DNA of 64,000 bases. It comes from Pirellulales bacterium (GTDB lineage: Bacteria > Planctomycetota > Planctomycetia > Pirellulales > UBA1268). The DNA lies in contig JBIIIP010000002.1 of the NCBI GenBank assembly GCA_044234625.1, positions 13,302 through 77,301 of the forward strand, given 5' to 3'. Positions within the stretch are counted from its first letter, which is position 1; each line of letters starts with the position of its first letter. This document shows, piece after piece, positions 2,250 through 36,086 of this stretch. The notes under the pieces were generated by a model. The model saw only the letters and a program-made list of their open reading frames with translations, was not told the origin of the DNA and did not search any database. Position numbers and translations under genes: made by a program.

Positions 2250-4337
2250 TCACCACTCCGGCTCGGCAAAGGGCTCCACCGTCACGCGGGCCGGCGGCAG
2301 GCTGCCGAGAAACACGCGGCCATAGGGCTTCGTGAGCATCCGCGGATCGAGGATCACCACCCGCCCCCGATCCGCATGCGAGCGGATCAGCCGGCCAAAC
2401 CCCTGCTTCAGCTTGAGCACCGCCTCCGGCAGTTGGTAATCGGCAAACGCATTGCCACCGGCCGCCTTGATGGCCTCGATCCGCGCCGCCACCAACGGCC
2501 GATCGGGTACCGCGAACGGCAGCTTCGTGATGATCACGTTCACCAGCTGCTCCCCCGGCAGATCGATCCCCTGCCAGAAGCCGTCGGTGCCCAGGAGCAC
2601 ACTGGCCGGGCCCTCCTTGAAATCGGCGAGCATCTGCGTGCGCGACAATCCATCCGCCTGGCTCACCAGCCGAAAGTTTTTCCGCGCGCACCAGCCCACC
2701 AGCGCTTCCGACGCCTTGGCCAGCGACCCATGGCTCGTGAAGAGCACCATCGCCCGCCCCTCCGTGCGCTCCACATGCCGCCGGATCATCTCCACCACGG
2801 CCGCGTCGTAGGCGTCGCGGTCGCTCGGATCAGGGAGCCGGTCGATGAGAATCAGTTCGGCCTGCGCGGCGTAATCGAACGGGCTGCCGAGCCGCTTGGA
2901 AACCGCCGCCCGGAGGCCGAGCCGGCCCCGCAGGAAGGCGAAGGGATCGGCCGCCTCGACCCCTTCCACCGTGGCCTCCTCCGCCCCGCCCCCCACCGCC
3001 AGCGTGGCGCTGGCCAGCACGACCGTGCCGACCTTGTCGAACAGCTCGCGGCGCAGCATCGCCCCCACGTCCACCGGGGCGCTGGCCAGCGTGATCCGCT
3101 CCCGGCCGCGCCGCGACCGCGTCGCCTCCACCCACCACACGCTCCCCGGCTCGCCCTGCTCAAGCCACGCATGCACGGCCCCGGCCTGCGCCGTGAGCCG
3201 CTCCGCCAGCGAGAAGAAGTCGTGCCGCTCGGCCTCGCTCGTGATCTGCTCGCCCGCCGTGCGGATCGACCGCGCCAGTCCGCGGAGCACGTCGCCCAGC
3301 GTGTCGGCCACGAGCCGCCGGCGTGGCACCCGCCACGGCGGCGGCCCCTGCCCCGCCACCTCCGCCTTCACGGCCGTGACAAAATCCTCGGCCACCCGCC
3401 GGCAGCGGAGCACGTCCACCTGCAGGTCGGCCAGCCCGTAATGCACGAGCAGGCCGCGGTGCGCCTTCTCGTTGAAAAGCTTCGTGAGCACGCGATCGAC
3501 CCCGGCGCTCGAGAGCCCGACTCCCAAGTGGTCGCTGGCCACGCTCTCCACCATGTGGGCCTCGTCGAAGATCACCACGTCGTAGGCCGGCAGCAGGCTG
3601 GCGCCGGCCCGCCGCAGGGCGAGGTCGGAAAAGAAGAGCGCGTGATTGACGATGAGCACCTGCGCATGCTGGATGCGGCGGCGGGCGGCGTAGTAATGAC
3701 ACTGCGCGAAGGTGGGGCAGGCGCGGCCCATGCAGTTGCCGGCGTCGCTCTGGATCTCGTCCCACACCGCCGTCGAGGGCAGCACCGGCAGATCGGCCAG
3801 CGAGCCGTCGGCCGAACTCCGCGCCCAAGCGGCCAGGCCATGCAGTTCGCGCACTTCCGCGTCGTCGGGAAACAGGCTCCCCGCCCGCTCCAGCGCCAGG
3901 GCCAGCCGCCGCAGGCTCACGTAATTGCCGCGGCCCTTCACCAGCACCGCCGAAAACTCGCGCGGCATCACCGCCGCCACCAGCGGGATGTCTTTCGTGA
4001 TGAGTTGCTCCTGGAGGGCGATCGTGTGCGTGGAGATCACGATCCGCCGCGAACGCGGACGGTCGCCCCCGGTGGCCGCCTCGTCGCCATCGTCCCAGGC
4101 GGGCTCCTCGATCGCGGCGGTCTCTTGCTGATCGGCCGTCGCGGCCAACACCGCCGGCACGAGATAGGCCAGGCTCTTGCCCACGCCCGTGCCCGCCTCC
4201 ACGATCACATGCCGCCGCTCGGCGATCGCCGCGGAGACGAGGCTCGCCATCTCCACCTGCTGCGGCCGCGATTCCCAGCCCGCGAGCCGCGCCGCGAGAC
4301 GACCGCCGGGCGCGAGAAACTCTTCGGGCGAAAGCAT
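2250..4337 (-). CDS. dinG: ATP-dependent DNA helicase, DinG/XPD (Rad3) family
   Basis: Walker [18 protein letters not shown] box [12 protein letters not shown], and a Cys cluster [16 protein letters not shown] typical of the XPD-type Fe-S domain. The ATG at 4337 (MLSPEEF) is preferred over the GTG at 4391. Confidence 0.85.
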
Positions 4338-22706: not shown

Positions 22707-22903
22707 CACACGGCTCCCACTTGAACCTCGCGAGTTTCGCTGGTCGGGAACGCCCAGCCCCGTCGCCGGACGTTCGCGGATGCCTTCGTGGCATCCGCTC
22801 ACTGCGTGTCCGCTGCGCTTCGGCATCCTCCTTACGCTTGCTCCCACAGCCCGGCTCTCAGGGCATGGGCATCCCCTCCCCCGGTCTGGTTCGCGGGGAA
22901 GCG
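22707..22903 (+). repeat. dispersed structured intergenic repeat, copy A (~197 nt)
   Basis: It aligns by hand to the reverse complement of 35891..36086 with about 14 mismatches and no gaps. It contains a 9-bp hairpin gcggatgcc-ttcgt-ggcatccgc (22776-22798). It fills most of the gap between two convergent genes. Confidence 0.9.
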
Positions 22904-22932: not shown

Positions 22933-23601
22933 TCACACGAAGCAGGCGTCATGGCCGGTCTCACGCAGATGGCCGGTGTCGTTGAACGACACGAGCCGCG
23001 GCCCGGGCCACGTGACGTGGGTCACGGAACAGTTAGCCAGCGCCGGCAATTTCGTGAACGGCCGCTCGGCGGCGGCGGCCAGCATCGGGTGCGACCGCCC
23101 CACGAGGCTGCCCAGCGCCGCGGTGAGAATTCCCCCGTGGGCCACGACGACCATTCCGCGCACGGGCCGGGCAGCCAGCGACTCCAGCGCCCTGCGGCCA
23201 CGGTCGGCCAATTCGGCACGCGATTCACCGCCAGGGATGCGGTAGTCGACATCGCCGCTCCGCCACCGGGCTACCTCCTCCGGAAAACGCGCCTCGAGGT
23301 CGGCCCACAGGTGCCCCTGGAAGATTCCCGCATGCAGCTCGCGCAGTTCCGCGTCGATCCGCAGCGGCAGATCGAGCACCGCGGCGATCCGGGCGGCGGT
23401 TTCCCGTGCCCGTCGCAGGGGGCTCGACCAGATCTCGTCGATCGTCTCCCGGGCGGCGAGCCCGCGGATCCAGTCGGCCACGCCTTCCGCCTGCCGCACG
23501 CCGAGCGTGGAAAGCTCGACATCCTCCTGGCCCTGCACGCGGCCTTCCCGGTTGGAGACGCTTTCGCCGTGGCGGATCAGATACTGCTGCATGGGGAGCA
23601 T
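22933..23601 (-). CDS. histidine phosphatase family protein (phosphoglycerate-mutase-like)
   Basis: RHG motif YLIRHGESVSN, SSPLRRARETA and VVVAHGGIL. The ATG at 23601 (MLPMQQYLIRHGE) is preferred over the track start at 23739. Confidence 0.85.
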   Translation of the reverse strand: MLPMQQYLIRHGESVSNREGRVQGQEDVELSTLGVRQAEGVADWIRGLAARETIDEIWSSPLRRARETAARIAAVLDLPLRIDAELRELHAGIFQGHLWADLEARFPEEVARWRSGDVDYRIPGGESRAELADRGRRALESLAARPVRGMVVVAHGGILTAALGSLVGRSHPMLAAAAERPFTKLPALANCSVTHVTWPGPRLVSFNDTGHLRETGHDACFV

Positions 23602-23745
23602 GCTACCGCGCCACGGAGGCGGACAATCCCTCAGCGATATGTCCCAGGAAAGCGGCGGCAGGATCGTGGCAGATGGCTGCGCCCCATGGGTGGTGCACGG
23701 CCATTCCCTTCCGTTATCCACTCCCGGCCGCAGCGCCACAGCACA

Positions 23746-24372
23746 TCATTCCGACGCCCGCTCTGCGCCTACGCAGGCAGACGTCCATGTCGCAACTTCA
23801 TCGATGGCAGCGTTATTTTCAGCATATGCCTGCTGAATGTTCCGCCGACGCTCTTCGAACGAAAAAGACGAACCGGTCTTCGGATTGATCTCCCAGGCCG
23901 GATGCGAGAACTTTTCCGCGCGCCTGGGTTCTTCGTGCGAAACGACGTCGGCAAGTCGATCGAGAAGCAGGCTCCTCGAGGCTCCCACCTCATCAAAATC
24001 AATAATGAGAAGGTCTTCGAGGCGGCTGGCCATTTTGCTCAACACGGCCCACTTTAACCCTGCCGCCCACCGAGGCATGGAAAAATCCAGTCGCTCGATT
24101 GGAAACTCACTGCGTTTGGCAAACGTCGGAGGTTCTCCCTGATTGAAAAATATGTTGCGTTCGGCTGCTGCAGAGGAAAGAGCATGGTTGATAAAGTTTT
24201 TGGCCACTGTGGTCACAAAAGTGATTTTCGAAGCCGGGCTGCTCTCGGATAGAGTGTGGGCCAAGATGATCGAGAGGGAGGTGTGCTTGATGACCACACC
24301 CCGACGAAACCGTGCCCAGCGGTTCACGAGCGCATTCGCGAGATCACCGCGAAGCACCCCAGGCGTTATCAC
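23746..24372 (-). CDS. hypothetical protein (208 aa), low G+C, function unknown
   Basis: This is the distal part of track ORF 23746..24702. A GTG at 24372 overlaps the ATP-grasp stop (GTGA). The sequence is AT-richer and non-repetitive (…NIFFNQGEPPTFAKRSEFPIERLDFSMPRW…LLIIDFDEVG…). The tail is loosely sulfotransferase-like, but I cannot support that call. Confidence 0.55.
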   Translation of the reverse strand: MITPGVLRGDLANALVNRWARFRRGVVIKHTSLSIILAHTLSESSPASKITFVTTVAKNFINHALSSAAAERNIFFNQGEPPTFAKRSEFPIERLDFSMPRWAAGLKWAVLSKMASRLEDLLIIDFDEVGASRSLLLDRLADVVSHEEPRRAEKFSHPAWEINPKTGSSFSFEERRRNIQQAYAENNAAIDEVATWTSACVGAERASE

Positions 24373-25670
24373 GCAGGCGTCGTATCGACATACGCTGCGG
24401 CGAGGGCGGGGGTTGGGCGGATGGCTTTGGCCGCGACGGCGGCCACCGCCGGCGTCTCCCCGGCCGCCGACCGCAACACATTGTTGCCCGAGACCCGCGC
24501 CTGGGTGACGCGCACGCCGAGGGCTGCGGAACACTCGGCCACCCATCCGACGTAACGATTCACGTCGTTCACGCCGTACGCAGCGAGATGATCTTCGACG
24601 CTGTCGTGCGGAGGCCCCGGAGGGATCCCTGCCTGTGCGGCATTGTGCCGAAAGACAGCCCCCACGCAATTGATCGGCACTCCGCGAGTCGGAAACGAGC
24701 ACGCCGTGATGTCGCTATGGGAGTTGACTTCACAGACGGCGTGCGGCTGGCTTGCGAGCGGCTGCCGATGATCCTGCAGGAGCAGGTCAACGCCATAGTG
24801 CCCCAGCCCACCCACCGCTTCCGCAACATCGACGGCGAACGTCGTGATCGACGTGTCAGTCTCCGTCACTCGCTCATGATACTCGCCGCCCAGGGAGACG
24901 TTCGCAGCTTCATTGAGCAGCACGACCGTCCCCTGGCGTGGAATGCTCTCCCATGACAAACCCTGCTGGTGGATGGTGGTCGCGATGATGGGGTTCTCCG
25001 CCTGGAGCAGCGCGAAACGATATCGCGGATGGGTCAGCCGCTTGGCATTCTTCTGCTCGATCAACTGGCGGATGGTAGACGCCCCATTCCCCACGGCCCG
25101 AGCGGAGACCCTTTCGACAACCGAGAGCACCTGCCCGTTGCACACCAGCACGCGGTAGTCACGGCCGGGAACGTATTCTTCGACGCGAAAAGACTCGCCC
25201 TTGCGCAACTGCGCATGCGCTTTTCGCAGGTCTTCGGCGGTCTCCAGCCCAACGCTCACCGCGCGACCGCTGCCTCCCTCGAGCGGCTTGAGAACTCCCT
25301 TGCCCTGCAGCCGCCCCAGAAATTCATTCGCTGCGGCGATGTCGGAATACTGGAACGAGGCACCAAAGGGAATGCGGATGCCTGCCTGCTGCAGCACGAG
25401 GCTCGTCAAATGCTTGTTGCTGCAGACAGCCGACGCCCACCGCGAAGTGAAATTCGAGCCGGTCATGAAGAATCCCAGCCTGGTCTTTGCGGAGAGTGAA
25501 GCGGCGGAAAAGAAGAGCGGCGAGAACCGGCTCGTCCTCATTCGCGCGCGGATCGCTTCGCTTTGCAGCAACATGCTGCCAAACGGCCGTGCCTCGAAGT
25601 AATCCGCTTCAGGCCACGAGTAGTGATTGTCTCCGTTTGGCTGCCGTGTCACACGGTGGGGGTAATTCAT
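24369..25670 (-). CDS. stand-alone ATP-grasp ligase resembling the cyanophycin-synthetase G domain / RimK type, with a ~100-aa C-terminal extension
   Basis: CSNKHLTSLVLQQAGIRIPFG, LKPLEGGSGRAVSVG, VEEYVPGRDYRVLVCNGQVLSVVER, VGNGASTIRQLIE, LLNEAANVSLGGEYHERVTETD, VCEVNSHSD. The order and spacing match what I recall for CphA residues ~170-470. Confidence 0.8.
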   Translation of the reverse strand: MNYPHRVTRQPNGDNHYSWPEADYFEARPFGSMLLQSEAIRARMRTSRFSPLFFSAASLSAKTRLGFFMTGSNFTSRWASAVCSNKHLTSLVLQQAGIRIPFGASFQYSDIAAANEFLGRLQGKGVLKPLEGGSGRAVSVGLETAEDLRKAHAQLRKGESFRVEEYVPGRDYRVLVCNGQVLSVVERVSARAVGNGASTIRQLIEQKNAKRLTHPRYRFALLQAENPIIATTIHQQGLSWESIPRQGTVVLLNEAANVSLGGEYHERVTETDTSITTFAVDVAEAVGGLGHYGVDLLLQDHRQPLASQPHAVCEVNSHSDITACSFPTRGVPINCVGAVFRHNAAQAGIPPGPPHDSVEDHLAAYGVNDVNRYVGWVAECSAALGVRVTQARVSGNNVLRSAAGETPAVAAVAAKAIRPTPALAAAYVDTTPA

Positions 25671-26155
25671 GCGGGAGTTGCTCTCGCCCGAATACTTTTC
25701 AACGGCTTGACGACACGGCTCGCGGTGGCGCCACCGACCTGATGGTGTTCACACCGGGGCTGACCGCCGACGAATGGCTCCGGCTCTCCTTGCTCAGATC
25801 GGACTATCCTACTCGCTTCCGCGTCGCGGAACCGGACAATCCCTCGGCGACCTGCGCCGACGCCACGCAAGCGCCACCACAGGGGGAAGGAGGGCGATTG
25901 ACGCCCCGACTCTATTCGCCCCGCAAGCACGGGCGCGCGGCTCACGAGCCGCTCATCAGCCGAAAAATGATTGCGGAAGAGCCATTGACCGGGCTGCCCT
26001 TCGCTGCGTCGCCGTGGTGGGCATGCGTGCACTCTGCTCCGATGGTGGTATGATATGGCGGATTGCTGCAGCCACGTTCGGGAACCGGGCCCGCGAATTT
26101 TCCGTCTGATACGATCCCGTTCCGTGCTTCTGCGTGATTGCTCCGGGGCCCCGCC

Positions 26156-26578
26156 ATGACCGCCGCGCTCGTCGCCAACGACCGCATCGCCGCGGAGGAT
26201 TTTGCCGGGGAGGTCGTCCTCATCGACATCGAGAAGGGGATTTACTTCAGCATCCAGGGGCTGGCCGTCGACCTGTGGCGGTCGTTCACCGAGCCGAGAC
26301 AGCCGGATGCCGTGCTCGACCAGTTCGTGGCCCACGGCGCGGATCGTGCCGTGCTCGCAGGCGCGCTCGACGAGTTGCTGCGAAACGAGCTCCTGTGCGA
26401 GACCAGCGCACTTCCCGTCACCGGACCGGTGTGCTCCATGCCGGCTGCGGGCTTCGCCGCGCCGGTCGTCGCGGTGTTCTCCGACCTCGCCGAATTGATC
26501 GCGATCGATCCGGTGCACGAAGTCGACGCCTCGGCCGGCTGGCCCCTGCGGCAGGCTAACTTCCCAGATGTCTCGTGA
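26156..26578 (+). CDS. PqqD-family (RiPP-recognition-element-like) protein
   Basis: The core AAEDFAGEVVLIDIEKGIYFSIQGLAVDLWRSFTEPRQPDAVLDQFV...LDELLRNELL fits the PqqD pattern (e.vlld...g.y..LN..g..iW..l....t..ei...l). The ATG at 26156 is preferred over the TTG at 26138. Confidence 0.75.
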   Translation: MTAALVANDRIAAEDFAGEVVLIDIEKGIYFSIQGLAVDLWRSFTEPRQPDAVLDQFVAHGADRAVLAGALDELLRNELLCETSALPVTGPVCSMPAAGFAAPVVAVFSDLAELIAIDPVHEVDASAGWPLRQANFPDVS

Positions 26579-27644
26579 TGCTGCCATAGCCCGCCCCGAT
26601 GCCGAGGCGGTGCACGCCAAGTCGACCAACTCCATCCTCGCCCTGCTCGACGAGGGTGAGCGGATCGCGACTCGAGCCCAGGTCTTCGGTCGTTCGTTCC
26701 TCGTCGGCGGCAGCGCGGGCAGCATCATCTCCAACGACGGGCCGCTCGCGGCGCGGCTGACCCGCTGCCTCGTGCCCGCAGAGGGAGGGCGTACGCCCGC
26801 GTTCAAGATTGCGCTCGTGAGCGGCTGCGCCACACCAGGCATCGCTCCGCCGCCGTGGAACCTGCCACACACGAGCCCGCGGCATCTCGAGCGTCTCCAC
26901 CTCGACGATGCGCGAGGCCTGCGGGCGTTCTACGATCACGACCGTCGGTTCTGGTCGATCGGCGACGTGGCCAGTCAGCGCGGGCTCTTCTGGATCGCAG
27001 ATGCGGCCGATGCGCCCGTGTGGGAGGAGGCGGCCCCCTTCAAGACGATCCTCAACTGGCTCTTTGCCACGTCATCTGCGACGTTTCTCCACGGGGGCGT
27101 CGTCGCGCACGCGGGCCGCGGGGTGCTGCTCGCCGGACCGGGCGGCTCAGGGAAGTCGACCACGGTGATGGCGGCCGTCGCCGCGGGCCTCGGCACCTGC
27201 GGCGACGATCTCGTCGTCGTCGACGAGGCCGGGGGGTTCACCGCACACGCTGCGTACGACGCGGTGAAGTTCTTCCCAGCGGCGGGCAATCACGTGCCGC
27301 GGCTCTTCGCCCACGGCCCGGTTCGACCCTGCGGTGACAAACTGCTCGTGCGGTATTCCGACGTCGCGCCGGAACGCTTCCTTCGCCAGACGCCGCTCGC
27401 GGCCCTCGCGCAGTGCGTGCTCCTCGGAGATGCGACCACGACGATCACACCGCTCGACCCGGGCGCGATGCTGCGGGCTGTCGGCCCGCCAACGGCTTTT
27501 CTGCTCCGCGGTGCGGAGCGTGACACGCTTCGCAAGGCGTCGGCCGCGGTGCGAGGGCTGCCCACCTTCAGGCTCGCGCTCGGTAGCAATCCGGCGGAGG
27601 CTGCGGAAGCAATCGGCCGCTGGCTCGAGGCGGGCCCCTCATGA
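26568..27644 (+). CDS. HPr-kinase-like (HprK-related) P-loop serine kinase homologue
   Basis: FLHGGVVAHAGRGVLLAGPGGSGKSTTVMAAVAAGLGTCGDDLVVV matches the HprK C-terminal-domain arrangement (hg..v...g.GvLi.G.sG.GKS..al.L...G..lv.DD). Its start overlaps the PqqD-like gene by 11 nt. Confidence 0.8.
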   Translation: MSRDAAIARPDAEAVHAKSTNSILALLDEGERIATRAQVFGRSFLVGGSAGSIISNDGPLAARLTRCLVPAEGGRTPAFKIALVSGCATPGIAPPPWNLPHTSPRHLERLHLDDARGLRAFYDHDRRFWSIGDVASQRGLFWIADAADAPVWEEAAPFKTILNWLFATSSATFLHGGVVAHAGRGVLLAGPGGSGKSTTVMAAVAAGLGTCGDDLVVVDEAGGFTAHAAYDAVKFFPAAGNHVPRLFAHGPVRPCGDKLLVRYSDVAPERFLRQTPLAALAQCVLLGDATTTITPLDPGAMLRAVGPPTAFLLRGAERDTLRKASAAVRGLPTFRLALGSNPAEAAEAIGRWLEAGPS

Positions 27645-28384
27645 GAGGTGCCGTCTCGGTGATCATGCCGTGTCGCAATGCAGGCCGCTACGTCGATGCC
27701 GCCCTTCACTCGGTGTGGCGGCAGGATGTGCCGGTGCACGAGGTGGTGATCGCCGACTGTGGATCGGAGGACGACTCGGCGGTCGTGGCCCGCCGACATG
27801 CGGCCGCGGGCCGGCCGATCCGGCTCGTCGAGGCCGGACCCCTTACGCCGGCTGCCGCCCGGAACGCCGCGCTTGCGGCTGCGACCGGAGATACGATCGC
27901 GTTTCTCGATGCCGACGATCTCTGGCCGCCAGGCAAGCTCTCGCGCCAGCTCGGCCGCCTGGGCAACGCTCCGCGCGTGGAGATGGTGAGCGGCTATGTC
28001 CGCTACTTTGAGACAGCCGCCGCGTCGGGCCTCGAACCCGCCGCCGACAGCCGGACCGAGACGATTTTTCACGTGCATCTGGGAACCTGCCTCTACCGCC
28101 GCCACGTCTTTGAGCGTGTGGGCGGAGCATTCGACGATGACTTCCTCTACGCGGAGGACGTCGACCTCCTGCTCCGCGTGCGCGAGGCTGGCATCCCGTT
28201 CACGATTCTCAGGAGCGTCGAGCTCTTCTATCGCCGGCACCCTGCATCGCTCATGGCGGCCGGGAATCCTCGAAAACAGTCCGACTTCCGGCTGGCGGCG
28301 CACAAGTCGATCGGCCGGCGGCGCGCGACCGGAACTCTCGCGACACCCCTGCGTGACTTCGCGCACTACGTGGAGCCTTCATGA
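27641..28384 (+). CDS. family-2 glycosyltransferase
   Basis: VSVIMPCRNAGRYVDAALHSVWRQ...VVIADCGSEDDS...AARNAALAAATGDTIAFLDADDLW (DxD). The start overlaps the upstream stop (ATGA). Confidence 0.85.
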   Translation: MRGAVSVIMPCRNAGRYVDAALHSVWRQDVPVHEVVIADCGSEDDSAVVARRHAAAGRPIRLVEAGPLTPAAARNAALAAATGDTIAFLDADDLWPPGKLSRQLGRLGNAPRVEMVSGYVRYFETAAASGLEPAADSRTETIFHVHLGTCLYRRHVFERVGGAFDDDFLYAEDVDLLLRVREAGIPFTILRSVELFYRRHPASLMAAGNPRKQSDFRLAAHKSIGRRRATGTLATPLRDFAHYVEPS

Positions 28385-29052
28385 TCTCGATCAGCGTGAT
28401 CGTACCGGCGCATCAGGCAGCCGCCACCATTGGCGAGACGCTGGCGAGCGTGCGCGGCCAATCGCGGGCGGCAGATGAACTGCTCGTCGTAGACGACGGC
28501 TCGACCGACGCCACTGGGGCGATCGCCACGGCGGCCGGGGCGAAGGTGATAAGCCGACCCAATGGCGGCGTGGCCGCGGCGCTGAACGCCGGCCTGGCGG
28601 CGGCCCTGGGCGATCTCGTTGCGTTTCTCGACGCCGATGATCTGTGGGCGCCCGATTGCCTGCGATTGCATGAGCACTCTCTCATCGACCACCCCGACGC
28701 GGCGGGCTCGGTTGCCCGGTTCAGCGAGTTTGTCTGTCCGACGCTTGCCGCCAATGTGGCCGCGCGGTTCGCGCCGCGGACGAATCAGCCGGCGTGGGTC
28801 GCCGGGGGAACGGTCGTACGGCGGGAGGCGTTCGAGCGGGCCGGCCCGCTCGACGAGTCGCTCCGCGTTGGCGCGTGGGTCGAGTGGGTCGATCGGGCCC
28901 GGCACGCCGGCTGCACGTTCAAAATGATCGACTCACTGCTGCTCCTGCGACGGCTGCGACCGGGCACGCTGAGCCAGGCCGCGTCCCGCAACGCCGATCT
29001 TCTGGCGGTGGCCAGGGCGGCCATCGCCCGACGCGGTTCAACTTCGTCATGA
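28381..29052 (+). CDS. family-2 glycosyltransferase (second copy, shorter)
   Basis: ISVIVPAHQAAATIGETLASVRGQ...LLVVDDGSTDAT...ALNAGLAAALGDLVAFLDADDLW. ATGA overlaps occur at both ends. Confidence 0.85.
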   Translation: MISISVIVPAHQAAATIGETLASVRGQSRAADELLVVDDGSTDATGAIATAAGAKVISRPNGGVAAALNAGLAAALGDLVAFLDADDLWAPDCLRLHEHSLIDHPDAAGSVARFSEFVCPTLAANVAARFAPRTNQPAWVAGGTVVRREAFERAGPLDESLRVGAWVEWVDRARHAGCTFKMIDSLLLLRRLRPGTLSQAASRNADLLAVARAAIARRGSTSS

Positions 29053-30479
29053 GCACCTCCACCGAGTCCGTCGCCGCGCCCCACGGTGGGCTGGATTTGC
29101 TTGTGCGAGCGGCGCTCGCGCCACTGGACGATGCCCGCACGGCGTGGCGCCGCTGGCGGGCTACGCATGACCTCGACGCCACGTCGTGGAGCGAGGTCCG
29201 GATCCTCGCGGCCGTCGCGGGGCGGATCGGCGTGCTGGAGGAGGACGCCGATGTTCGGCCGCGGATCGAGGGCATCCGCAAGTTTCTCTGGGTGCATACC
29301 CAGATGTGCCTCGAGCCGGCAGGGCCCGGGCTCGCCGCCGTCGTCAGCAGCGGCATCCCGGTGCTCCTCATGAAGGGTGCGGCACGCGTGGTCGCGGATC
29401 CGAAGAGCGCCCACGAGCGGCTGATCCGCGACGTCGATGCGCTCGTTCCACTCGGCAGCGAGGAACGGGCGCTCGATCTGCTCAGGGCCGCGGGCTGGAC
29501 GCTGTCCGAACCACGCTGGGCCGTCAAGGCGCGGGCGGCGGGGAAGGTGGCCGGCCACCACGCGTGGACGCTCACCAAGGGCCGCTCGGAGATAGACCTG
29601 CACCACTTCTCAAATCACCTCAACCGGCTGACCGGCGACGACGACGGCCTGTGGCGGCGGGCCAGCAAGGCGACGTGGCGCGGCGTGACGGTGCACCTGC
29701 CATCGCCGGCAGATGCACTCGTGCTCGCGGTGACACATGGCGTGCGCTGGTCGCTCGATGGCGCGGCGGACTGGACGGTCGATGCGGCACACCTCTTGGA
29801 CGCAGGATCGATCGACTGGGATATCGTGCTCGACGAGGCCGAGTCACGCCTGCTGCACGCCGTGCTCCACGCCGGGCTCGCTTATCTCGCAGGACCCCTC
29901 GGGCGGCACGTGCCGCCCGACGTGCTCGATTCGCTCGCCTGCAAGACGAACGATCTTGCCCGTCAGGAACTTGCAGTCTATGCCGCGAACGCCGGTCCGC
30001 GCACTCGTGCGGAGCAGGAGATTGGCTTCGAAATGGCGGCGCTCCGAGCATGCTCTCGGGCAGGCCTCACCGCACCGGCCAGCGACACATGCTTCCTCGC
30101 CGAAGCGCTCGCGGCTGGCAACGGAATGATCGCACCCGGGAGCAACCTGATCACCTGCGTGATCCCACAGACCACCATCCGCGACTGGCTGCTGGTTCAG
30201 ATCGAGCTCGATGCAACCTCTCTTCCGGCGGCGGTAGCCCTCACCGCTCGACTCGAGGCACCGGGTCTCGTCGTCGGATACGGCCCGGGTGCGATCCACC
30301 AGACGGCGGGCGGACGCAAGGTCGTACGGTTTCGCTGCAAGTTGCCGGGTGCCCTCGTCGTGCTCCGCCACCTCGGACAGATGACCGTCCAACTCCGGTC
30401 TCATGGCAAAGCGTTTTCGGAACCGACGCACGTGCCGATCACCGTGACCTGGCACCGGCTCTTCAGAGAGAAAACCTGA
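29049..30479 (+). CDS. uncharacterised nucleotidyltransferase-family protein (PF14907/NTP_transf_5-like)
   Basis: The ATG at 29049 (MSTSTESVAAPHGGLDLLVRAA) lies within track ORF 28794..30479. GIPVLLMKGAA...RLIRDVDALVP...ALDLLRAAGW...IDLHH follows the pattern I recall for this family. Unverified. Confidence 0.65.
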   Translation: MSTSTESVAAPHGGLDLLVRAALAPLDDARTAWRRWRATHDLDATSWSEVRILAAVAGRIGVLEEDADVRPRIEGIRKFLWVHTQMCLEPAGPGLAAVVSSGIPVLLMKGAARVVADPKSAHERLIRDVDALVPLGSEERALDLLRAAGWTLSEPRWAVKARAAGKVAGHHAWTLTKGRSEIDLHHFSNHLNRLTGDDDGLWRRASKATWRGVTVHLPSPADALVLAVTHGVRWSLDGAADWTVDAAHLLDAGSIDWDIVLDEAESRLLHAVLHAGLAYLAGPLGRHVPPDVLDSLACKTNDLARQELAVYAANAGPRTRAEQEIGFEMAALRACSRAGLTAPASDTCFLAEALAAGNGMIAPGSNLITCVIPQTTIRDWLLVQIELDATSLPAAVALTARLEAPGLVVGYGPGAIHQTAGGRKVVRFRCKLPGALVVLRHLGQMTVQLRSHGKAFSEPTHVPITVTWHRLFREKT

Positions 30480-30732
30480 GGGTGACGTGGAAGATTTCCA
30501 CTGGACGGAGGGCCTCGCGGCCGGTGCCGTGCTCGCCGCCCGAGGACCCACGGTATTTTTTCACGAGCGCGGCCACGTCGGCGACGAGGTCGCGAAACAT
30601 CTCGAGGCCCACCGCCGATCGCGAAGCAAGGCCGCGTGGCTCACAACCCTGCTCATCAGCCGGGAAATGGTTGAGGAATGGCCATGGAATGCGTACCCTT
30701 CGAACGCCCGCGGACCATGACGGTCGGGACAC
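30463..30732 (-). pseudogene. possible relic of the C-terminal part of an FAD-linked oxidase (GlcD / D-lactate dehydrogenase type)
   Basis: Track ORF 30463..30732 reads ...PFLNHFPADEQG...MFRDLVADVAALVKKYRGSSGGEHGTGREAL. This resembles the H.GDGNlH ... GGs.sgEHG.G.k block of FAD_oxidase_C, but the rest of such a gene is absent on both sides. Confidence 0.25.
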
Positions 30733-30761
30733 GGATTCGCAGGGCCGTTTGGGAGAGTCTC

Positions 30762-31934
30762 ATGAAGCAGTGTCCGCTGCAGGCCGGCGCCGCCCGCCGT
30801 CGTGTTCTCCTCGCGGTTTGGCTCGGGCTGTTCATGGCTCCGCCGGCCGTGGTCGCGTCGGAGCCGCCGGCCGTGCGCGGTCGCGTGTTCATCGACCGGC
30901 TGACCGCGGCGTGGCAGTCACAGCAGGTCCAGGAGGCCTGCATCGTGCCGAATCCGAAGGATCCGGAAAAGCTCGTCATGTTCTATTCCGGCGTTCCCGC
31001 GGCGGACCGTGGAACCTGCGCCTTCGGCAAGGCATGGGCGCTGAAGTCGGATCCCTTCACGTGGCATCAGGATCCCGCAAACCCGATCTTCTCTCCGGCG
31101 GGAGCAAACGCGTGGGACGGCAAAAGCATCCGTCTCGATGCCGTGCTCTACATTCCCGAAGAGCAGGCCTACTACATCTACTACTCCGGGGCCCGCACGT
31201 CGGTGCAGGATCGGATCGGACTTGCGATATGCCCGGTGGGGCAAGACGGCTACTCGGAGATCACGCCGGCGACCATCAAGCGGTGGGGAACGGCTCCTGT
31301 GCTCGCTCCGGAGGCGGCGGCACCGTTTCACGAGGAGATGGCTTCACAGGCCGCGGTGATCCGGGAGTGGAACGCGGAGGTGAACCGCTGGGACTGGACG
31401 ATGTACTACTCCTACCGAGGCAAGGACGGTGTCTTGCCGGGAATTCGGCTGGCCACATCGGTCGATGGCAAGACGTGGACGCGTCACTTCAACCGCGAGG
31501 ATCCGCGTGGCATGGGGCAGATCTTCGCATCCGTGCCCAATGCCTACTACGAATGGCATCAGATCTTCAAAGTCAACGACACCTACGTGCTCTCGATCGA
31601 GGTGGGCGTCGAGAAGGGCCAGCGCTGGCGGCCGGTGCTCGCGGTGAGCAAGTCGCCCCGCTCCGGCTGGCGGCAGTTGCCGGTCGACACCGTGTTGCAG
31701 ACCGGATGGAGCGGGTTGTATCGCGATGACGCCATGTACCACGTGGCCACGCCGGCCTTTTACCCGATCGATGGCCGGTGGTATCTGTACGCGCAGGCCT
31801 GCCCGCTGCCGGAGAACCGCAACTACATCGACGGGGCGTGGGGCCTGTGGGTCGTCGAGTGCGGGCGTCGCATCCCCACGCTGCCGGGCTATGCAGAAGT
31901 CTGGGTGCCGGGGCTTCCCCAGCCTGTCCGCTGA
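30762..31934 (+). CDS. secreted hypothetical protein, possibly a beta-propeller glycoside-hydrolase-like fold
   Basis: Signal peptide MKQCPLQAGAARRRVLLAVWLGLFMAPPAVVA. Blade-like segments recur (KLVMFYSG, AYYIYYSG, WTMYYSYRG, IRLATSVDGKTW, RWYLYAQ). The family assignment is not verifiable here. Confidence 0.55.
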   Translation: MKQCPLQAGAARRRVLLAVWLGLFMAPPAVVASEPPAVRGRVFIDRLTAAWQSQQVQEACIVPNPKDPEKLVMFYSGVPAADRGTCAFGKAWALKSDPFTWHQDPANPIFSPAGANAWDGKSIRLDAVLYIPEEQAYYIYYSGARTSVQDRIGLAICPVGQDGYSEITPATIKRWGTAPVLAPEAAAPFHEEMASQAAVIREWNAEVNRWDWTMYYSYRGKDGVLPGIRLATSVDGKTWTRHFNREDPRGMGQIFASVPNAYYEWHQIFKVNDTYVLSIEVGVEKGQRWRPVLAVSKSPRSGWRQLPVDTVLQTGWSGLYRDDAMYHVATPAFYPIDGRWYLYAQACPLPENRNYIDGAWGLWVVECGRRIPTLPGYAEVWVPGLPQPVR

Positions 31935-31970
31935 GACCGCGGCCGGGAGATCACGCCGGCAGGTCTTCCC

Positions 31971-33599
31971 TCATCGGGCGGCGGCCTGGGGCTGGGCCTC
32001 GCCGTGATGCGTGCGGGCCAGATGGTCGACGAATTCGCGGCTCGCCGCCTGGAGCACGAACACCTCGCTGGCGGCCTGCGGCGCGCCGTGCGGACGGACG
32101 ATGCAGATCACCTCGGCCTTGCCTCCATGCTGGCGGACATGCTGGAGGAGAGCCTGCTCGCCGGCAGACAGGGGCGTCGCGGCCCCGTCGTTCGCACCGC
32201 GGTCCGATGCCGTCGCGGCCGTGGGCACCGCAGCGGCGCGGTCGCGGCGATCGAGCGCCACCTTCGGCATCTCCTCGGGCATATTCGGCACCACGTCGCC
32301 GCCGCTCTCGGCCATGCCCGCACTGGGATACGTGCTCCGGTAGACGAATGCCAGGCCCGACTCATCGAGCTGCTCGTGGATGGCGGCGAGGGCGGCGAAC
32401 AGCCCTTCGTTGTCGGCGGGATCGGCGGCGTTGCACACGCCGATGAGCGTGCCATCGAGGCCGAACAGGCCGCCGCCGCTGCGGCCCTGTACCGGCTGGC
32501 CGGCCACCTGCACGTTGGCCGGGCCGAGATATTTGTCGACGCCGGTAATCCGGCTGTAGAGGAGCGTAGGGTCGTCGCCGCCGTTGCAGCCCACCGTCAC
32601 GACCGGCTCGCCGGACTTCGTGATGCGGTCGGTGCCACCGACGCGCATCGGTTCGATCACCACGTCGGTGAAGATGCTGACGAGCGCCACATCGCGCTTC
32701 AGATCCCAGGCCACCACCTGGCCGGCCACGCCGCGCGGTCCGTTCGGCCCGAAGAGGTCCACCTCGACGCGTCCCTTGCCCTGTGAATCCCGGAAGATGT
32801 GGCCGCAGGTGAGGATCAGCGCCTCGCCCTGGCGGCAGTCGATCACCGTGCCTGTGCCGCGCGACATGCCGCTGGCGTCGTCGACGCGGAGCCGCGCGGT
32901 CGCCTGGAGGAGTTTCCGCTCGAAGGCCGCGCGGTCTTGGGGACTGATCGGGGCGGAGCTGGTCGCGGCCGGCGTGGGAACCGGCGCCGTCGCGCCGTCG
33001 TCGTGCGACATGGCCACGGGCTCGGCGGAAACCCGCGCCGGGCCGGCGACGAGGGCTGCGGCCGGCGGCGGCACGGCAACGGTGGGCTCCAGGGCCAGCG
33101 GCCCGGCGGCGGGCGTCGCTGGAAGGGGTATGCCGGGGATGGGAGCCGGGCGCTCCTGCGGGGGAGCCACGGCCGGCAAGGCGGCCAGGCCGAGTGGCTC
33201 GCGGCTCTTGGCGAGGAGTTTTTCCAGTTCGACGCGCGAGGTGGCGCCGTTGATACGACCCACTTCCTGTCCCTTTACGAGCAGCACGTAACACGGCACG
33301 CCCGTCACGCCGAACCGCCTGACGAGATCCTGCTCCCGGTCGGCGTCGACATGCCGCACGAGCCAGCCGGCGGCCGTGATCTCGCCGATGACGGGCGCCA
33401 TCTGCCGGCAGGGGCCGCACCATGAGGCCGCGAAATCGAGCAGCACCACATCGCCCTGCACGGCGGCTTGGGCCGCATCACCGCCCGAAATGCCGAGGTT
33501 GCGATTGATGAGGGGGTCGGCGTGGGCCGTGGTCGCGGCCGCACCCCAGAAGCAGGCGGCCATGGCGCCGCACGCGACTGCTCTCGAGACGATTGTCAT
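31971..33599 (-). CDS. thioredoxin-domain / trypsin-like serine protease fusion protein, exported
   Basis: Signal-like MTIVSRAVACGAMAACFWGAAATTAHA; thioredoxin site FAASWCGPCRQM; a Pro/Ala-rich linker; and protease-like blocks LTCGHIF, DVALV and GRSGGGLF (His/Asp/Ser). Confidence 0.8.
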   Translation of the reverse strand: MTIVSRAVACGAMAACFWGAAATTAHADPLINRNLGISGGDAAQAAVQGDVVLLDFAASWCGPCRQMAPVIGEITAAGWLVRHVDADREQDLVRRFGVTGVPCYVLLVKGQEVGRINGATSRVELEKLLAKSREPLGLAALPAVAPPQERPAPIPGIPLPATPAAGPLALEPTVAVPPPAAALVAGPARVSAEPVAMSHDDGATAPVPTPAATSSAPISPQDRAAFERKLLQATARLRVDDASGMSRGTGTVIDCRQGEALILTCGHIFRDSQGKGRVEVDLFGPNGPRGVAGQVVAWDLKRDVALVSIFTDVVIEPMRVGGTDRITKSGEPVVTVGCNGGDDPTLLYSRITGVDKYLGPANVQVAGQPVQGRSGGGLFGLDGTLIGVCNAADPADNEGLFAALAAIHEQLDESGLAFVYRSTYPSAGMAESGGDVVPNMPEEMPKVALDRRDRAAAVPTAATASDRGANDGAATPLSAGEQALLQHVRQHGGKAEVICIVRPHGAPQAASEVFVLQAASREFVDHLARTHHGEAQPQAAAR

Positions 33600-33753
33600 C
33601 CGAACGGGCTCCGAAAAAGGCCGGTGAAAGGCGGGCGGATGGTGCCGCCGGCGCCCCGTCGCCACAAGATCACTTTCACACTCCGTGCGGAAGAAAACGG
33701 CCTTGCCCCGTCGACCCCATTTCCGCCCCGTTTCCCCGTTTGCGCTCGGTTTC

Positions 33754-35890: not shown

Positions 35891-36086
35891 GCTTTCCAGT
35901 GAACCAGACCAGGGGAGGGGATGCCCATGCCCTGAGAGCCGGGCTGTGGGAGCAAGCGAAGACAGGATGTCGAAGCGCAGCGGACACGCAGTGAGCGGAT
36001 GCCACGAAGGCATCCGTGAACGTCCGGCGACGGGGCTGGGCGTTCCCGACCAGCGAAACGCACGAGGTTCAATTGGGAGCCGTATG
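35891..36086 (-). repeat. dispersed structured intergenic repeat, copy B (inverted relative to copy A)
   Basis: Its reverse complement aligns to 22707..22903 (about 93% identity by hand). The same central hairpin lies at 35996-36018. It begins 35 nt after the metG stop. Confidence 0.9.

Follow-up and report, generated by a model that had tools for sequence, protein, structure and literature searches.

The described system nearest to the protein analyzed here is cyanophycin synthetase CphA1, an enzyme of about 870-950 aa made up of N, G, and M domains, whose ATP-grasp G domain (TIGR02068; Protein Data Bank (PDB) 7WAC/7WAE and 7LG5) is the best match in both sequence and fold. Our subject is P0001, a stand-alone ATP-grasp ligase of 433 aa, whose gene lies next to a short open reading frame (ORF), orf208, in a 64,000-nt stretch of DNA from a Pirellulales bacterium (hereafter, the window), on contig C5 of a genome assembly of 3.12 Mb, 176 contigs, and 68.1% G+C. 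The second-best matches are the C-terminal ATP-grasp module of GshF (NF002688; PDB 3LN6/3LN7) and N-acetylglutaminylglutamine synthetase (TIGR03103), both of which extend a small peptide at its carboxylate by an amino acid; P0001 differs in having neither a GshA nor a GNAT domain. PsnB and other graspetide macrocyclases place an ATP-grasp in a peptide-modification context, but PsnB is only a distant fold match to P0001, and unlike in graspetide systems, no precursor peptide was identified at this locus. ATP-grasp enzymes are also found paired with HprK-like kinases, as in the TIGRFAMs "GAK system", which combines an ATP-grasp with HprK-related kinase B; no GAK-system model is among the 22 NCBIfam matches of P0001.

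With moderate confidence, we favor the explanation that P0001 is an independent, active carboxylate-amine ligase with an acylphosphatase-like tail that probably adds an acidic amino acid, and that its gene sits on a mosaic island. The chemistry, the acidic nucleophile, and the independence from the neighboring genes are the parts that we infer. By analogy with the CphA G domain and GshF, the enzyme would use ATP to phosphorylate a carboxylate, most likely an alpha-carboxylate belonging to an amino acid or a short peptide, and the resulting acylphosphate would then be attacked by an amino acid, probably an acidic, Asp-like one, so that the route from carboxylate through acylphosphate to amide would be common to CphA1 and P0001. 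The gene would have arrived by horizontal transfer within a compositionally mosaic island of 8.3 kb, and its product most likely works independently of the cassette of PqqD, HprK, GT2, GT2, and nucleotidyltransferase genes that lies on the same island.

Family matches and catalytic residues of the ligase

A preliminary description of this locus had likened the ligase to the G domain of cyanophycin synthetase without the Mur-ligase-like M domain, and this resemblance was recovered by NCBIfam, by a PDB sequence search, and by a fold search. Residues 72-339 of P0001 align to positions 200-466 of the 862-position CphA model at 1e-45 (156 bits, cut-off 850), followed by GshF (129 bits, cut-off 425) and N-acetylglutaminylglutamine synthetase (110 bits, cut-off 569), with all scores far under the family cut-offs. 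The PDB sequence search returned CphA1 (2e-32) and then GshAB and CphA2. The AlphaFold2 (AF2) model of the ligase (predicted local distance difference test (pLDDT) 83.6, predicted template modeling score (pTM) 0.81) retrieved CphA1, CphA2, and GshF with Foldseek at 5e-23 to 1e-21, while Ddl, LysX, and the ATP-grasp PsnB, which acts on ribosomally made, post-translationally modified peptides (RiPPs), came only at ~1e-9 to 1e-11 (PsnB is given as 7e-10, ranks 21-40). In a phmmer comparison, neither the N nor the M domain of an annotated CphA1 matched P0001, so that the ligase lacks the N domain as well as the M domain. Membership of a housekeeping family such as the D-Ala-D-Ala ligases, which the preliminary description had named as the finding that would speak against it, was not seen: these models score 15-42 bits against cut-offs of at least 243 (NF002378, 42 bits, cut-off 243; TIGR01205, 27.5 bits, cut-off 246), far below what the families require, and the protein is CphA-G/GshF-like instead.

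We mapped residues of the TeCphA1 structure (PMC9427784) onto P0001 through a HMMER alignment. The ATP residue K261 is kept as K128, the acylphosphate/oxyanion arginine R309 as R173, and the Mg2+ residues D431 and E450 as D295 and E314. Both contacts to the aspartate beta-carboxylate, R323 and N394, are kept as R187 and N257, as are the Asp-pocket residue S396 (S259) and N452 (N316), the conserved Asn of the E-x-N motif, whose role is not taken from that paper. On the other hand, four positions are replaced: E215, which contacts the Arg side chain of the primer, is A81; H267 of P-loopG is S134; the oxyanion residue G456 is D320; and R458, which contacts the Asp alpha-carboxylate, is T322. The glycine-rich P-loop of the ligase resembles the general type rather than the His type of CphA. 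The kept catalytic and pocket residues are invariant or near-invariant across the ligase family, and because of this the enzyme looks catalytically active, acting probably on an acidic amino acid; since both beta-carboxylate contacts are present, the incoming residue is probably Asp-like. Because the cyanophycin-specific residues of CphA are absent, the product is predicted not to be cyanophycin.

Between P0001 and a homologue of 81% identity, the ratio of nonsynonymous to synonymous substitution rates (dN/dS) is 0.16 overall, 0.125 in the N-terminal extension, and 0.105 in the C-terminal tail, and the ligase is under purifying selection throughout its 433 aa. Since the N-terminal extension aligns across the family and has a dN/dS of 0.125, the ATG at 25670 is supported as the true start of the ligase gene.

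The acylphosphatase-like tail and the ligase family

The tail of about 100 aa had been called unrelated in the preliminary description. We found that it is instead a family-conserved acylphosphatase-like domain, homologous to the PF00708 domains of relatives. An exhaustive HMMER search with the ligase collected 7,388 cluster representatives with E<=1e-3, 265 of which have E<=1e-30; many of the best matches form one collinear stretch over query residues ~14-432, which takes in the N-terminal extension, the core, and the tail. Some of these full-length matches are free-standing proteins of ~430-510 aa, and the rest make up the C-terminal half of proteins of ~870-980 aa; P0151 and P0039, both stand-alone, are among them, as are the Phytoactinopolyspora clusters described below and the fusions P0011, P0024, and P0033. 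Pfam acylphosphatase is found at the C-termini of P0011 (5e-20), P0024 (2e-17), P0039 (2e-16), and P0151 (2e-15). The tail of P0001 alone has no Pfam match even at E 10; it aligns to acylphosphatase in hhalign (88.9% probability, E 2.4e-6, 78 columns), residues 357-432 of the AF2 model show a beta-alpha-beta-beta-alpha-beta topology, and in the family alignment the tail is collinear with the acylphosphatase domains of homologues. The catalytic Arg of acylphosphatase (V-x-G-x-V-Q-G-V-x-F/Y-R motif) is V374 in P0001 and the catalytic Asn (G-W-V-x-N motif) is R392, unlike in the relatives P0151, P0039, P0147, and P0148, which keep both. Because of these replacements, we regard the tail of P0001 as a degenerate acylphosphatase copy, which probably serves a structural or binding role.

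In a maximum-likelihood tree of 104 core domains, P0001 groups with the 81% homologue and the 43-44% homologues (support 100/99), and the nearest neighbors of that group are P0024 and P0025, of which P0024, the one scanned for domains, is a fusion with an MR_MLE domain. This group lies inside a clade (99/95) that consists almost entirely of single-core, tail-bearing proteins, while the CphA1 G domains form a separate clade (100/93). A CphA1 proper is encoded elsewhere in the same genome and is 34% identical to the ligase. Derivation of the ligase from this resident cphA was considered and rejected, since the resident copy is 34% identical and in a separate clade, compared with foreign homologues at 81% and 44%. 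Of the 150 best representatives, the annotated CphA1 included as a control was the only one with a CphA N or M domain. Together, these findings assign P0001 to a large, uncharacterized ATP-grasp clade whose members have an N-terminal extension, a core of the CphA-G/GshF type, and an acylphosphatase-like domain at the C-terminus. Our literature search found no study of ATP-grasp ligases with an acylphosphatase tail.

Members of the family occur as stand-alone proteins, in tandem or multi-paralogue clusters, or fused at the N-terminus to MR_MLE/enolase or PGA_cap/CapA domains. The combination of MR_MLE, ATP-grasp, and acylphosphatase is seen in P0011 and P0024, and that of PGA_cap/CapA and ATP-grasp in P0033 and P0064. 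The MR_MLE domain of the fusions belongs to the enolase superfamily and is methylaspartate-ammonia-lyase-like, and the presence of such a fusion near P0001 in the tree hints at (methyl)aspartate or epimerized amino acids as substrates. A domain that hydrolyzes acylphosphates joined to an enzyme that forms them could act in proofreading or in the control of futile ATP use. It is this family-level architecture of ATP-grasp and acylphosphatase, rather than the locus itself, which is of modest interest, that we consider worth following up.

In Phytoactinopolyspora, Trueperaceae, and others, homologues of about 30% identity are found in clusters of 3-5 ATP-grasp paralogues, several of which have acylphosphatase domains; unlike in these clusters, the ligase gene in the window is single. 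Clusters of CphA-G-like paralogues on one strand were seen in Phytoactinopolyspora spp. (L055, L056, L057, and L063), in Nesterenkonia aerolata (L059), and in a metagenome-assembled genome of Trueperaceae (L060), and L056 holds three genes with a C-terminal PF00708 domain (839, 835, and 523 aa). These paralogue clusters look like an uncharacterized multi-ligase assembly system, mostly in halophilic or alkaliphilic lineages, and suggest that unknown amino-acid oligomers or polymers are made without ribosomes or nonribosomal peptide synthetases (NRPSs). Close homologues of the ligase are few: word-indexed protein searches returned only 5-7 proteins, a profile scan of genome contigs with the alignment of the close group gave no matches, and a metagenome scan added one new locus only, L026.

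Contexts of the ligase and of the PqqD cassette

The ligase gene faces the PqqD cassette across a single spacer, and the preliminary description had proposed that the enzyme could extend or cross-link the peptide handled by the PqqD, kinase, and glycosyltransferase (GT) genes, as part of a RiPP class not described before. Read in this way, P0001 would be a tailoring enzyme of the PqqD/HprK/GT2/nucleotidyltransferase system, acting, for example, at the C-terminal carboxylate of its peptide. The arrangement is consistent with such a role, since both lie on the same 8.3-kb insertion and diverge across one spacer whose length of 485 nt we confirmed. So is the chemistry, as the CphA G domain extends the C-terminal carboxylate of a peptide (PMC9427784), and HprK homologues of the lasso type modify a C-terminal Ser (PMC8498205). 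However, co-occurrence fails in both directions. A profile hidden Markov model (HMM) of the ligase family had no match in the 184 kb of the 13 cassette-gene loci, and HMMs for HprK, PqqD, and NTP_transf_5 had none in the ~15 contexts of ligase-family genes (191 kb), a result that the preliminary description had itself listed as one that would refute its proposal. The 13 loci comprise 12 from a scan of 400 other genomes sampled from the phylum, 11 of which have HprK-like homologues, and one found among the relatives (G016, L027); at 8 of them (L027 and L042-L048), at least four of the five cassette genes stand in the same order, and the other five are partial or limited by their contigs. Our checks bear out the cassette as a self-contained unit, whose kinase and nucleotidyltransferase resemble enzymes that tailor phosphorylated and phosphoglycosylated lasso peptides (PMC8498205).

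The homologues of the ligase, whether at 81%, 44-46%, or ~30% identity, have other neighbors. At the 81% homologue (L014/L015, from Logan SRR31724281/80), DNA similarity to the window is confined exactly to the ORF. Its flanks (bases 1-220 and 1522-1653) hold, upstream, a divergent sulfatase-like gene that encodes a signal peptide followed by the motif RPNILVIW and, downstream, a long GC-rich, terminator-like hairpin with stops in all frames. Neither orf208 nor PqqD is present, and the homologue thus stands alone between these two features. The 44-46% homologues (L011-13 and L026) lie downstream of an NAD-epimerase gene, together with sulfotransferase, GT1, AMP-binding/PCP, and NRPS-condensation genes. 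A homologue of ~30% identity in Nesterenkonia lies beside GlmS, phosphoglucosamine-mutase-like, GT2, and TupA genes. In L026, the 46% homologue is split over two frames at ~2308-2344 (tblastn segment pairs at 1340-2326 and 2308-2601), which indicates a frameshift or an assembly error.

Composition also bears on the proposal, in that the ligase pair and the cassette differ sharply and for this reason point to separate origins, and the fold of P0001 is much nearer to CphA and GshF than to PsnB. We therefore judge it quite unlikely that P0001 is a tailoring enzyme of the cassette, and since co-occurrence fails in both directions, the reading as a new RiPP class is not supported. A narrower form, in which the ligase was recruited on the island to the PqqD/HprK/GT2/nucleotidyltransferase system and extends the peptide of that system at the C-terminal carboxylate by an acidic amino acid, appears very unlikely; if true, it would amount to a RiPP-like pathway with a RiPP recognition element (RRE), a kinase, glycosylation, and C-terminal extension by an ATP-grasp, a combination that we found described nowhere. 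Lying next to a PqqD operon is not in itself enough for a new RiPP class, and the locus is best filed as a strain-specific mosaic island.

Several points weigh against our preferred explanation of an independent ligase for acidic amino acids. The ligase gene and the cassette occupy the same insertion site and diverge from a single spacer, as a functional unit would. The replacement of CphA1 G456 and R458 by D320 and T322 means that the nucleophile may not be a free alpha-amino acid. The contexts of the homologues differ among themselves, so that function may vary within the family, and the comparison covers ~15 ligase and 13 cassette contexts, with most homologues only 30-46% identical.

The island, orf208, and the neighboring genes

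The preliminary description had inferred horizontal acquisition from a break in composition seen in hand counts of single 60-nt lines. Recomputation matched these counts exactly (51.7%, 48.3%, and 56.7% G+C at 24001-24060, 24121-24180, and 25021-25080, compared with 70.0% and 68.3% in the control lines 3001-3060 and 27001-27060), and the computed G+C and codon profiles set both genes apart from the genome background. Among equal-sized genome windows, orf208 (55.2% G+C, z = -3.5) is in the lowest 0.55%, the ligase gene (63.2%, z = -1.5) is at the 6.6th percentile, and the two combined (60.6%) are at the 3.2nd; the spacer (64.9%, z = -0.8) is at the 19.3 percentile. Relative to 1,462 long ORFs typical of the genome, the codon adaptation index (CAI) of orf208 (0.446) is lower than that of every reference ORF and that of the ligase (0.573) is at the 1.8th percentile, whereas those of all five cassette genes and of unk418, with which the island ends, are at the 19th-51st percentile. 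The cassette genes are thus within the range of the genome in composition and codon usage, unlike orf208 and the ligase gene. Because the island falls into three compositional classes (55%, 63%, and 65-70% G+C), these values suggest that it is a mosaic rather than a block from a single donor. Coordinates of the features are collected in Table 1.

Table 1. Features of the insertion and its flanks, in window coordinates
Feature	Position	Strand	Remarks
Left flank, histidine phosphatase HisPhos	22933..23592	-	PF00300 4.5e-47; conserved in congeners
Strain-specific insertion, ~8.3 kb	23640..31970, boundaries approximate	.	orf208, ligase, PqqD cassette, unk418
orf208	23746..24372	-	208 aa from GTG 24372, or 203 aa from GTG 24357; low-G+C ORFan
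Stand-alone ATP-grasp ligase P0001	24369..25670 (stop codon included)	-	433 aa
Ligase C-terminal acylphosphatase-like domain, residues 341-433	24372..24650	-	catalytic Arg/Asn replaced by V374/R392
Ligase ATP-grasp core, residues 71-340	24651..25460	-	K128, R173, R187, N257, S259, D295, E314, N316
Ligase N-terminal extension, residues 1-70	25461..25670	-	conserved within family
Divergent spacer, ligase gene to PqqD-like gene	25671..26155	.	485 nt
PqqD cassette (context)	26156..30479	+	Pfam and NCBIfam matches
PqqD-like gene	26156-26578	+	Pfam PqqD 9.4e-5, just below gathering score
HprK/ScmC-like gene	26568-27644	+	
GT2 gene	27641-28384	+	
Second GT2 gene	28381-29052	+	
NTP_transf_5 gene	29049-30479	+	
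unk418, last island gene	30678..31934	+	no Pfam, NCBIfam, PADLOC, or PHROGs match
Right flank, thioredoxin-trypsin fusion TrxTryp	31971..33665	-	conserved in congeners

The gene order M28 peptidase, TIGR03790, HisPhos, TrxTryp, and MetRS is conserved in four genomes of the same genus (L051-L054), in which HisPhos and TrxTryp are 32-65 nt apart, compared with ~8.3 kb here. The alignment of these congeners with the window ends at 23,616-23,622 and resumes at 31,975-31,996. An HprK-like gene is absent from all 11 congeners, and a search of 40 relatives gave no ligase orthologue but only full-length CphA at 28-35% identity. Atypical composition, absence at the orthologous site in four congeners, and the lack of an orthologue in 40 relatives thus uphold the inference of horizontal acquisition, which is supported for the whole ~8.3-kb island. 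The island has no tRNA and no flanking direct repeat longer than 8 nt at its junctions, and no integrase appears among the Pfam matches of its genes. It is present at 100% identity in independent metagenome assemblies, with the gene pair identical in three or four of them (this species).

The other half of the pair, orf208, is probably a real, lineage-restricted gene. Its frame is open over all 624 nt, which was seen in 1 of 5,000 shuffles, and its G+C periodicity over codon positions, though weak, has the correct phase. A search of 5.8 billion proteins matched orf208 only to itself, no match was found in Pfam, NCBIfam, PADLOC, PHROGs, or PDB sequences, and a single-sequence AF2 model was unusable (pLDDT 37.7). 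The GTGA overlap with the ligase gene at 24369-24372 on the minus strand is present as described, while public gene callers start orf208 at GTG 24357 and leave a 12-nt gap. With the genes overlapping stop to start or 12 nt apart, and thus at most 12 nt apart under either start choice, co-transcription with the ligase is likely.

The pair had been described as a two-gene module, and we weighed the possibility that the ligase and orf208 form a self-contained unit in which orf208 is, for example, a substrate, scaffold, or partner. Besides the likely co-transcription, both genes are compositionally foreign, and the pair is identical in three or four metagenome assemblies of the species. However, orf208 has no homologue anywhere in the proteins searched, the 81% homologue is followed by the terminator-like hairpin in its place, and the genes downstream of the 44% homologues show no similarity to it. 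In addition, orf208 has 55% G+C, compared with 63% for the ligase and ~62% for its 81% homologue, which would make it of yet another compositional origin than the ligase. Going by these comparisons, orf208 is not a conserved partner of the ligase, the pair is not a conserved unit, and a self-contained module is an unlikely explanation.

The absence of conserved partners, together with the ORFan status and very poor codon adaptation of orf208, would also fit inert passenger DNA, with the pair as decaying remnants of a foreign cluster at an insertion hotspot. A scan of the spacer region found no sigma-70-like promoter or terminator consensus, although the consensus may not fit this organism. Decay is hard to reconcile with a ligase that has a dN/dS of 0.16 and all of its catalytic residues intact, with an orf208 frame open far beyond chance, and with a sequence that is identical across several assemblies, and we consider the passenger explanation highly improbable. 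A reading of the locus as a defense system was rejected as well, with no PADLOC match for the ligase, orf208, or unk418.

At the left junction, the longest ORF of HisPhos (22933-23739, minus strand) would encode 268 aa, while gene callers give 219-222 aa. HisPhos is 74-77% identical in the four congeners from residue ~40-50 of the long ORF, and the extra 5' part, at the left junction of the island, is probably noncoding. Inverted repeats of 197 nt at 22707-22903 and 35891-36086 were considered as limits of the island and rejected, since the repeat has more than 80 genomic copies and the boundaries lie elsewhere. These copies, some full and some partial, are dispersed over the contigs at 72-98% identity, and the family looks like a repetitive extragenic palindromic (REP) or miniature inverted-repeat transposable element (MITE)-like sequence.

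In the spacer, we identified no conserved precursor peptide, and neither the spacer nor its region has an Rfam family match. The ORF at 26134-26559 was rejected as the PqqD gene because its codon-position G+C is inverted, which marks it as the wrong frame. The kinase of the cassette scores 17 bits with HprK_rel_B, for which the cut-off is 200, and unk418 was not found beside the cassette genes at the 13 loci from other genomes, which makes it another gene specific to the island. Cassette content varies at two of these loci: G016 (L027) has two NTP_transf_5 paralogues after both GT2 genes, and G063:C5 (L047) has four consecutive GT2 genes and a divergent NTP_transf_5 gene. Immediately before the PqqD-like gene of the window, an ORF of 34 aa (MADCCSHVREPG...) lies at 26055-26159 on the plus strand, and its TGA stop overlaps the ATG of the PqqD-like gene.

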